From a virus, in the IMG/VR virus record IMGVR_UViG_3300023243_000009, positions 74,668 through 138,667 of that record: 64,000 nt of DNA. One strand, 5' to 3'. Positions 15,120-20,815 of the stretch are shown here, in pieces. Both the position numbers and the translations under genes were made by a program. The stretch's first letter is position 1. Each line of letters starts with the position of its first letter. The notes below the pieces were generated by a model. It did no database searches. It was given only the letters and a program-made list of their open reading frames with translations, and was not told the DNA's origin.

Positions 15120-15202
15120 AATTTATGTGTTAATATACAAAAGAAGACTCGCATTGGCAAGTCTTCTTATACATTTATTTGAGATATTGGATAAAATTAT
15201 TG

Positions 15203-16638: not shown

Positions 16639-17062
16639 AAATATAAGAGAGGTTCGGGTCTTTCGAGGTTTCTAGAAATATCTGGGACTGGAGATAAACC
16701 TTTATCTTATTCCAGCTTGTCCTAGCTTCACTTACTCTCTTAATATTATAAGTTAGAATGGTTGTTTGAATCCCTTTTCAGTTCACCCTTGAACGTCTAA
16801 CTTTATATTTTACTTCTAATTCTACCCAATACTTCTGTATGGACTAGTATCTAAACTTTTAACGCGTATTAATTATTTAGCGTAGTTATTAAATAAGTTT
16901 TCTCTTATCAGCAGGGCCGGCATATCTTCCTTGGTTGTTTATACCTTGGTTTCAAATCCTTAGCTTACTTTAATAACAATCAGAAGCTCTTTATCCTTAC
17001 GGTCCCGTAGTTTTGGCTGCATACCAACTCCACAGTTAGGCCAGGGCTTTAAAGAGATTTTG

Positions 17063-17214
17063 TAGTCCTAGTTGGAATCGAACCAACCTTTGATAAGTTA
17101 CTTACTCTAATGCTTTAACTTTCTCTTCAAACTAGTATAAGAAGTGTTAAACCAAAAGCCGTAACGTTACCCCACTAGTAAGAGTAGGGGCGACCTACTA
17201 CTACATATAGGACT
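17063..17214 (-). ncRNA. tRNA-like RNA with a greatly expanded anticodon domain (152 nt)
   Basis: Perfect 7-bp acceptor AGTCCTA/TAGGACT, T-arm GTTGG TTCGATT CCAAC, ~110-nt interior. Confidence 0.7.
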
Positions 17215-17226
17215 ATTTTAATTTTG

Positions 17227-17329
17227 TAGCTATGTTAGGATTTGAACCTAATCCGGCTTTACAATACTAAGTGAACTTATCGTTAAACTTAACCTTGGAG
17301 AGGTGCTATCAACCAATGATCTCACAGCT
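17227..17329 (-). ncRNA. tRNA-like RNA with an oversized variable region (103 nt)
   Basis: Acceptor AGCTGTG/CATAGCT, T-arm TTAGG TTCAAAT CCTAA, D-like ATTGGTT, hairpin ACCT CTCCA AGGT. Confidence 0.65.
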
Positions 17330-17523
17330 ATATTTTTTGCACTAACAGTAACTAGCTTATCCTTTTAAATCTGTTAATACTTCGGAATCTAACCGCTCAT
17401 ATCTCAAGTCCAGCGTAAGGACTAATGCTTATATGTTCTTGATATGCAACCTTCTAGGTATAAAGTTCCCACCACTTCACATCTAGAGTAATAAGTCGTA
17501 GATGCTACTCGAGAAGTTTTTTG

Positions 17524-17605
17524 TACGTTTGGAGAGATTCGAACTCTCACACCTTAAGGCACTAGATTCTAAATCTAGCATGTCTACCAATTCCAACACA
17601 AACGC
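17524..17605 (-). tRNA. tRNA-Leu (TAG)
   Basis: CTAGA TT TAG AA TCTAG, long variable arm. Confidence 0.92.
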
Positions 17606-18243: not shown

Positions 18244-18316
18244 AGAGTGAGACAGGAATCGAACCCGTTAAAAATTGGTTTTGCAAACCAACTGCCCAAC
18301 CATGAACATCCCACTC
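18244..18316 (-). tRNA. tRNA-Cys (GCA)
   Basis: TTGGT TT GCA AA ACCAA; U73. Confidence 0.88.
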
Positions 18317-18319
18317 TTT

Positions 18320-19487: not shown

Positions 19488-19586
19488 ATAAAGCCAACCC
19501 CGTAGGTTAGCAGGACATCTTTAGGTAATGTCTTTGCAAGAATTTTCATCTCTGACCAATTCGATCACCCTTTGGGCGTCAATAGG

Positions 19587-19660
19587 GGTGTAAGGTGGGT
19601 TTCGATCCCACTACCCTTCGGATCACAACCGAACGCTCTTCCGATTGAGCTACAAACACC
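19587..19660 (-). tRNA. tRNA-His (GTG)
   Basis: TTCGG TT GTG AT CCGAA, G-1, C73. Confidence 0.9.
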
Positions 19661-20495: not shown

Positions 20496-20567
20496 GTTAA
20501 CGTACAAGAATCGAACTTGCTTCTCCCGGCTCATTGCCGGGCGTGGTCACCATTCCACTAACGCCAA
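20496..20567 (-). tRNA. Atypical tRNA with anticodon ATG (His-like), A33
   Basis: Full cloverleaf; CCCGG CA ATG AG CCGGG; C73. Confidence 0.6.
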
Positions 20568-20750: not shown

Positions 20751-20815
20751 TAGTTATGATAGGATTCGAACCTATATCTTGCGGACCGCCATGTTAACCG
20801 TTACACCACACAACC
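20751..20815 (-). ncRNA. tRNA-like RNA lacking an anticodon loop (65 nt)
   Basis: GGTTGTG/CATAACT, D-loop AACGGTT, anticodon arm reduced to GCGG T CCGC, intact T-arm. Confidence 0.65.

Follow-up and report, generated by a model that had tools for sequence, protein, structure and literature searches.

Small stable RNAs encoded in the tRNA cluster of bacteriophage T4 have been known for decades. Two of them, RNAC (species 1, 139 nt) and RNAD (species 2, 119 nt), lie in tandem on the same strand as the tRNAs and abut them, and the large structured interior of RNAC is enclosed by a T arm and an acceptor-like stem. The function of both RNAs is reported as unknown (PMC3014915, PMC9697503). In tmRNA (SsrA, RF00023/RF04321), the tRNA-like domain consists of an acceptor stem and a T arm, and a long helix takes the place of the anticodon arm. 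YrlA and the other bacterial Y RNAs (RF02553) are tRNA mimics fused to an effector helix; YrlA, which also occurs in phages, ends in the Ro-binding stem, and its acceptor-like stem is closed. Class II tRNAs and the engineered tRNA scaffold are tRNA frames that bear a large extra arm, the frame serving for processing and stability, and in the laboratory scaffold the cargo RNA takes the place of the anticodon arm. ROOL and GOLLD are structured RNAs often found within tRNA arrays of phages and bacteria, and both form homo-oligomers using kissing loops among other contacts (PMC12990946).

The DNA analysed here, a stretch of 64,000 nt referred to as the window, forms the right-hand 64 kb of an IMG/VR virus record that is 138.7 kb long and has an estimated completeness of 85%, and the sequencing runs containing it are salt-lake metagenomes. 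All large ORFs of the window lie on the minus strand, and the genome carries a myovirus gene set (tail sheath, tape measure, family-B DNA polymerase, GroEL, and QueD). Flavobacterium phage immuto, the nearest cultured relative, has a tail-sheath identity of 53% and is without the element described below. ARAGORN predicted 25 minus-strand tRNA genes between positions 15200 and 21500, and two more were recovered with Rfam models (Table 1), giving about 27 tRNA genes on the same strand as the element; this array serves all 20 amino acids once tRNA-Cys is counted. Within the array we observed a tRNA-shaped RNA gene (the element), at which neither ARAGORN with introns disallowed nor Rfam made a call, RF00005 giving no match even at E ≤ 5.

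Among the known systems, T4 RNAC and RNAD are the closest analogue of the family to which the element belongs. As in T4, the element is an RNA gene that shares both the cluster and the strand of phage tRNA genes, and as in RNAC, a T arm and an acceptor-like stem enclose a large structured interior. The tandem of RNAC and RNAD also has a counterpart in the window, where a 103-nt tRNA-shaped RNA lies immediately upstream of the 152-nt one. By its position and shape, the window RNA falls into the RNAC type of non-tRNA RNA genes that lie in a cluster and have a tRNA-like acceptor stem and T arm, a functional class without a model. In contrast, RNAC has no sequence or model similarity to the family: R1, the covariance model of the family built in this analysis, scores rnaC at 16.4 bits, a tRNA-like level. 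Furthermore, the acceptor stem of RNAC contains two U.U mismatches, its hairpin arrangement differs from that of the family, and the hosts and phage lineages differ.

Table 1 Features of the element and of the surrounding tRNA array. Coordinates are those of the window; RNA position p of the element is 17215 minus the window coordinate.
Feature	Position	Strand	Basis or remarks
tRNA-shaped RNA gene (the element), 152 nt	17063-17214	-	Sequence; R1 match 92.6 bits, E 5.6e-25; alignment A2
Acceptor stem, 5' strand AGUCCUA (RNA 1-7)	17208-17214	-	Pairs with 17064-17070
Extended D hairpin (RNA 11-37)	17178-17204	-	D stem GUAG/UUAC; covariation, strain variant
D-hairpin apex GG-UCGCC-CC	17187-17195	-	GG/CC with UCGCN loop in 27-28/28
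Single-stranded linker UAGUGGGG	17170-17177	-	Family consensus GAGUGGG; D-loop-like A-G-U-G-G-G
Long arm at the anticodon-arm place (RNA 46-121, ~76 nt)	17094-17169	-	Folds, covariation, arm consensus
Apical loop UUAUACUAGUUU, 12 nt	17129-17140	-	Caps stem CUUC/GAAG of the long arm
T arm GUUGG-UUCGAUU-CCAAC (RNA 128-144)	17071-17087	-	Perfect; T stem covaries
Acceptor stem, 3' strand (17064-17070), discriminator A73 (17063), and encoded C74 (17062)	17062-17070	-	
Second tRNA-shaped RNA, 103 nt	17227-17329	-	12 nt upstream of the element; apparently non-decoding
ORF-free block, 253 nt	16804-17056		Strong folding; directly downstream of the element
tRNA-Cys(GCA)	18244-18317	-	Rfam tRNA-Sec model only, 46.7 bits (gathering score 47); missed by ARAGORN
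HNH endonuclease ORF, 169 aa	18320-18829	-	Within the array, directly upstream of tRNA-Cys
tRNA-His with unusual anticodon AUG	20496-20567	-	ARAGORN; besides normal His(GUG) at 19585-19659
tRNA, 65 nt	20751-20815	-	RF00005, 49.7 bits; missed by ARAGORN

The fold runs, from 5' to 3', through a 7-bp acceptor stem, U8-A9, a capped D hairpin, the strand GAGUGGG, the long arm, 3-6 linker bases, the T arm, and N73-C. In the window copy, the acceptor stem is a perfect 7 bp (AGUCCUA/UAGGACU), one extra base follows U8-A9, and the D stem is formed by RNA 11-14 paired with 34-37. At its base, the long arm has the helices UAA/UUA and GUUAC/GUAAC, followed by an internal loop that is rich in purines and contains AGUAA, and by distal helices including UUUAAC/GUUAAA. 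The discriminator A is followed by C-AAAA, and CCA is not encoded. The trailer N73-C-AA(A/U) occurs in most of the 25 array tRNAs called by ARAGORN, and that of the element is alike.

An earlier note, made from the letters of this DNA, had described a tRNA-like RNA in which the acceptor stem and the T arm are perfect and A73 precedes C-A, and the sequence of the minus strand agrees with all of these. The note had also proposed that a domain of ~110 nt replaces both the D and the anticodon arms. A foreign domain is indeed present and no anticodon arm was found, its place being taken by an arm of 72-84 nt across the family; however, the foreign part is about 76 nt in the window copy since the D hairpin lies outside the long arm, and the D arm is retained as a covarying D stem closing an extended hairpin. 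As for the two interior helices drawn in the note, TTTAAC/GTTAAA is kept in the minimum-energy fold and matches an arm helix in related members, whereas TACTCT/AGAGTA found no support: TACTCT belongs to the D hairpin, and AGAGTA to the 3' strand of the long arm.

Subsequently, homologues were examined. An exact 26-nt search with the 3' half of the element gave no match in viral contigs, and when the element was compared by blastn with 50,697 records of cultured phages, only its T arm gave matches. Among the 80 loci of QueD-anchored relatives, only L023 had a large tRNA array and a homologue; the homologue occupies another place of its array and has the motif GGUCGCCCC in common with the window copy. 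Pattern scans on GGUCGCCCC, UGGG, and the T loop retrieved the family, which comprises 28 distinct homologues of 139-153 nt in 33 viral contigs. A relaxed viral scan and a metagenome scan gave only chance matches among the matches listed, and a complete scan with a relaxed T loop and exact GGTCGCCCC gave no new members. The family is almost absent from prokaryotic species genomes, as 185,579 of them yielded a single true match, on a 530-bp contig binned with a Rhodothermales genome. With R1, the members scored 90-142 bits and ordinary tRNAs at most 30 bits; the score of the window copy (92.6 bits) spans the full model, all the listed family features are present in it, and each genome has one copy of the RNA. 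The family is not represented in Rfam 15, and full-text literature searches found no description of it.

The carriers are uncultivated phages with unrelated backbones of 123-269 kb. At most of the loci holding the 28 sequences, the element lies 5-10 nt from flanking tRNAs of the same strand, the common neighbours being Thr then Asp, Asn then Ile, or Met, and in one group of phages of about 125 kb it is accompanied only by tRNA-Met and tmRNA. Clustering of the neighbouring genes over the family loci gave no conserved protein, four family-bearing genomes had no CCA-adding enzyme common to them, and the gene content of the carriers gave no pointer to a pathway.

We aligned the 28 sequences with MAFFT (alignment A2). 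RNAalifold recovered the acceptor, D, and T stems from A2, with compensatory changes in 14 of 19 pairs. A 32-pair structure, which also takes in the base of the long arm, was then scored on A2: 89.5% of the cells were paired (69.5% in shuffles), double changes were observed in 26 of the 32 pairs and 168 cells (18.7 pairs and 49.7 cells in shuffles), and the covariation score was 0.622, compared with 0.236 for shuffles and 0.12-0.17 for slid partners. In the acceptor stem, all seven pairs are standard in 28/28 sequences, with double changes at each pair; both the acceptor and the T stems covary with 100% of their cells paired, and every acceptor, D, and T pair is retained through compensatory changes in the 28 homologues. 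Variants of the D stem include GUUG/CAAU, GCAG/CUGU, and CAGG/CCUG. Moreover, a related strain in the salt-lake contigs differs from the window copy at 12 positions, among which are compensatory changes in the D stem (11:37 from G-C to A-U; 14:34 from G.U to G-C) and a change of A1 to G1, giving G1.U72 as in half of the family. Covariation in homologues was a check named beforehand in the earlier note, and the interior proved to be conserved and covarying as well.

UGGG is invariant in the 28 members, also in scans that left it unconstrained, and A2 shows no variation in the T loop or in the GG/CC on either side of it. New members from a scan without the T-loop constraint carried the identical T loop, and a scan in which the T-arm motif was fixed at its first seven bases and free at its last four gave no further members and returned known ones with the same motif. 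Since the scans that left these motifs free returned the same motifs, the invariance of UGGG and the T loop is not a search artefact. A pseudoknot between CCCC of the D cap and GGGG of the linker was also considered and set aside because GG/CC is clearly local in members with a long D hairpin, e.g. L457.

No identity element of the acceptor stem or discriminator is conserved in the family. The discriminator is A in 20, U in 5, and G in 3 members, the pair 1:72 is variable, and the pair 3:70 is C-G in 11, U-A in 9, A-U in 4, U.G in 3, and G.U in 1. A C follows N73 in 28/28 members and CCA is encoded in 0/28. Neither an anticodon nor a reading frame is conserved among the 28 members. Because the discriminator and the pairs 1:72 and 3:70 vary so freely, aminoacylation of the element appears doubtful; the G3:U70 identity of alanine tRNA, which the earlier note had found missing, is indeed absent from the window copy. 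Taken together, we are confident that the element is genuine, does not decode, and belongs to a conserved RNA family.

The long arm is 72-84 nt across the family. Its basal helix of 4-5 bp covaries (UUAA/UUAA, UUAG/CUAA, CUAA/UUAG, and UGAAU/AUUCA), and so does its apical stem, which is CUUC/GAAG in the window, CUAC/GUAG in L486, CUCC/GGAG in L450, and CUCU/AGAG in L470. Between them, an asymmetric internal loop is conserved with some variation as 5' GAYG and 3' WGUA; by eye, it may recall a bulged-G or loop-E motif. Readings of the UGAUG motif as a K-turn, box C/D, or hammerhead were rejected by eye, the partner strands CUGA or GAAA being missing. Three arm subtypes were distinguished. The apex of types I and III is centred on AU(A/U)CUAG, whereas that of type II is GUGUACAC or UACGUA (GUAC/ACGU-centred). 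In the window copy, a type III apex sits on a type II base, GUUAC/GUAAC, at which relatives show GUGAC/GUGAC with a G.G mismatch. As the apex differs between the subtypes, the tip of the arm is not a binding site common to all members.

We considered whether the element is an ordinary tRNA with an intron or a giant variable arm, the window copy becoming tRNA-Lys(CUU) once RNA ~43-124 is excised or looped out. Every contiguous segment of 50-99 nt was removed from all 28 members and the products were passed through ARAGORN. A tRNA-Lys(CUU) cloverleaf was drawn for 400 deletion variants of the window sequence, and ARAGORN finds Lys(UUU) in the array while Lys(CUU) is missing from it. In this cloverleaf, however, the anticodon stem has to contain a C.U mismatch and the D stem is a weak one of 3 bp, and the other members gave inconsistent anticodons (Leu, Arg, Ala, Thr, Ser, and others) or none. 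Thus, no consistent splicing product emerged from the 28 members, an ordinary tRNA left after splicing being the outcome that the earlier note had named as incompatible with its own reading. The related strain has ACU in place of CUU as its would-be anticodon and a broken pair 30:38, whereas the same substitutions are compensatory in the D stem of the family. The supposed insert is also the most conserved, covarying part of the family, and no archaeal-type splice motif was seen in it by eye. ARAGORN in intron mode, another check proposed in the note, called no tRNA at the element. The self-splicing tRNA introns known to us are all longer than the ~80-nt insert. An interrupted or giant-armed tRNA is hence a very improbable account of the element.

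The element might instead be an aminoacylatable carrier or a mini tmRNA-like rescuer, whose charged CCA end would deliver an amino acid or an arm-encoded tag to ribosomes or a transferase. The comparison with the tRNA-like domain of tmRNA, already drawn in the earlier note, holds for the architecture, in which a long helix at the anticodon-arm place accompanies the acceptor stem and T arm and to which the D-loop-like GG strand can be added, and it does not extend beyond architecture. The tmRNA genes reported in marine myophages (PMC9004378) would fit a tmRNA-like reading. Five type I members share a start-less frame after UGGG, ...LLP(D/N)IL(D/G)(K/E)(A/V)W-stop, with some synonymous changes. 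In these five sequences, however, variable columns are distributed 6/6/7 over the three codon positions by hand count, that is, without codon periodicity. By eye, the frame is not kept outside type I; in L450, the one member followed in detail, all three frames stop 1-8 codons after UGGG, and the window frame differs from that of type I. Furthermore, the peptide stretch coincides with the apical hairpin, the stem of which covaries as an RNA helix in type III members (CUUC/GAAG, CUAC/GUAG, and CUCC/GGAG). The peptide idea was rejected; of the members examined, the five of type I were the only ones with a tag frame.

Other features also separate the family from tmRNA. It has a real D stem and no conserved tag frame or pseudoknot ring, G3:U70 occurs in only 1/28 members besides the variable discriminator and pair 1:72, and its length of 139-153 nt compares with 374 positions of the Rfam tmRNA model. 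That model (RF00023) matches only 18 nt of the element, in the T arm. SmpB is absent in four family-bearing genomes, and the family coexists with genuine tmRNA in some phages, the group of L085, L097, and L439 already having a tmRNA gene beside the element. We therefore regard a carrier or rescuer as improbable.

The tmRNA of this group is a permuted, two-piece one (L097, 242-504; L085, 8664-9052; L439, 3041-3426) in phages of about 125 kb, and it adjoins tRNA-Met and the element. ARAGORN calls a tmRNA in all three, with tags ending in ...RRFAA and ...LRAVA, and that of L097 scores 64 bits with RF04321.

The earlier note had further mentioned Y-RNA-like mimics. The family resembles YrlA in that a tRNA mimic is fused to what may be an effector helix, yet the Y-RNA topology does not apply: the ends of the family RNA form the acceptor stem and not a Ro-binding stem. 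A Y RNA was rejected, as the element gave no RF02553 match and neither Ro60 (TROVE) nor RtcB was found when both were searched in the window genome.

A decaying tRNA pseudogene or a feature acting at the DNA level, such as a homing-endonuclease target or a cassette boundary, would have no RNA function. HNH endonuclease genes do occur within these arrays, and the element and its neighbours come and go between strains. On the other hand, the 28 sequences come from unrelated phages, and compensatory changes in 26 of 32 pairs are what selection on an RNA fold leaves behind; this covariation excludes a pseudogene. The single copy per genome and the invariant single-stranded motifs are also at odds with decay or a DNA-level role, which we consider highly unlikely. 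With no conserved anticodon or frame, G3:U70 in a single member, and no excision common to the family, the element is therefore regarded as neither an intron-containing tRNA nor a tmRNA nor a pseudogene.

The tips of the long arms raise the alternative of a self-assembling RNA, in which palindromic apical loops would pair copies by kissing loops and the tRNA frame would serve for processing only. In about 18 of the 28 members, the longest self-complementary run of the central arm lies at the arm tip despite differing sequence; the tip palindromes are ACUAGU, UACUAGUA, AUACUAGUAU, UCUAGA, GUGUACAC, and UACGUA, and the window copy has ACUAGU in its 12-nt loop. Homo-oligomers are formed by ROOL and GOLLD, which also reside in tRNA arrays, and palindromic base-pairing is listed as a motif of other RNA dimers (PMC12990946). 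The palindromic apical loops of the family hint at a possible self-association of a like kind, although ROOL and GOLLD are 550-830 nt long, are not tRNA-shaped, and are in Rfam without a match at the element. Palindromes of 6 nt are common in AU-rich sequence, however, so the palindrome statistics are weak; a hairpin with a palindromic loop of 4 nt is palindromic in its stem too, so that the signal may be intramolecular; and five members have only CUAG at the tip. We consider such self-assembly unlikely.

By a modest margin over even, we favour the reading that the element is a gene for a stable, non-decoding tRNA-shaped RNA, a member of an undescribed family in phage tRNA arrays, acting as follows. 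The tRNA top half is what RNase P, the 3' trimming enzymes, and the CCA-adding enzyme recognise. The element would be co-transcribed with the flanking tRNAs, and its intact top half, in which the 7-bp acceptor stem would be stacked on the T arm and the D-loop-like GAGUGGG strand could meet the T loop, would open it to RNase P, 3' trimming, and CCA addition by the host enzyme. As judged from this shape, the RNA would be excised from the array transcript and stabilised like a tRNA; the shared trailer and the tight spacing argue for such tRNA-like excision and finishing. The RNA cannot take part in decoding because the long, conserved, irregular arm of 72-84 nt replaces the anticodon arm, as sequence and covariation show. 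The conserved parts foreign to tRNA suggest a defined three-dimensional core that binds something conserved: the D cap GG-UCGCN-CC, the GAGUGGG strand, and the basal GAYG/WGUA loop would together be the effector, binding a conserved partner not encoded by the phage nearby. The long arm is most likely the working part of the RNA.

Since no phage protein travels with the element and its carriers are diverse, the partner probably belongs to the host and handles tRNAs; by analogy, the most likely candidate is a host factor recognising the tRNA body. The RNA may thus act as a tRNA mimic or decoy, e.g. towards tRNA-directed defence or processing enzymes, with the frame as a natural scaffold. Like class II tRNAs and engineered scaffolds, the family would be a tRNA frame bearing a large extra arm; unlike them, it is natural and conserved, and its arm stands at the place of the anticodon arm instead of the variable loop, with no anticodon loop left. 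Phage tRNAs reportedly evade tRNA-targeting defences, and the decoy reading draws on analogy with them and is not a result. Of the two uses offered in the earlier note, the tRNA mimic is the better reading of the element; a decoy or mimic function is nevertheless put forward tentatively, as one possibility with less than even chances. A more specific version, in which a tRNA-scaffolded decoy, possibly a kissing-loop dimer, would be a phage counter-measure that captures, with an authentic tRNA top half and the conserved arm, a host factor binding or attacking tRNAs, is speculative and rather unlikely; the candidate factors would be acceptor-end-modifying toxins, tRNA nucleases, or a translation or processing factor.

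If this counter-measure reading were true, it would give a first function to the class of tRNA-cluster RNAs that includes T4 RNAC and RNAD. Should the RNA be a decoy or regulator of the host tRNA-binding machinery, phage control of translation or defence would likewise gain an RNA-based layer. The 28 sequences from unrelated phages are a better handle on this class than one T4 example, as the family provides a conserved core that can be mutated, an RNA bait for the partner, and natural strains with and without the element to compare. Furthermore, tRNA finders and Rfam miss these genes; seemingly empty stretches of tRNA arrays are therefore not spacers.

Modules of the array act as cassettes, and some strains have the element while others are without it, as with an accessory cassette. 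One strain is without 16804-17332, i.e. the element, the upstream tRNA-shaped RNA, and the 253-nt block. In another, related strain, the 253-nt block is missing and two other bases are found at the junction. The sole RNA run found covers tRNA-Leu and 17254-17526 and not the element, and is therefore uninformative on the expression of the element. The HNH gene within the array recalls segB of the T4 tRNA cluster, and the arrays of L023 and L085 also hold HNH genes.

The 103-nt RNA upstream of the element has the acceptor stem AGCUGUG/CAUAGCU, a D arm with the loop AUUGGUU, an extra arm of ~37 nt, and a T arm; an invariant hairpin, ACCU-CYCCA-AGGU, presents a 5-nt loop at the place of the anticodon loop. 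This RNA gave no match to R1. Homologues were found in L085 (9454-9538) and L475 (4484-4576), both of which carry the main family, and their acceptor and D stems covary. Finally, R1 gave further weak matches (20-25 bits) of an oversized 160-170 nt in L478 (46-211), L470 (2307-2478 and 4959-5119), and L475 (5378-5545). These lie in the arrays of family-bearing phages and are probably further, different tRNA-shaped RNAs.
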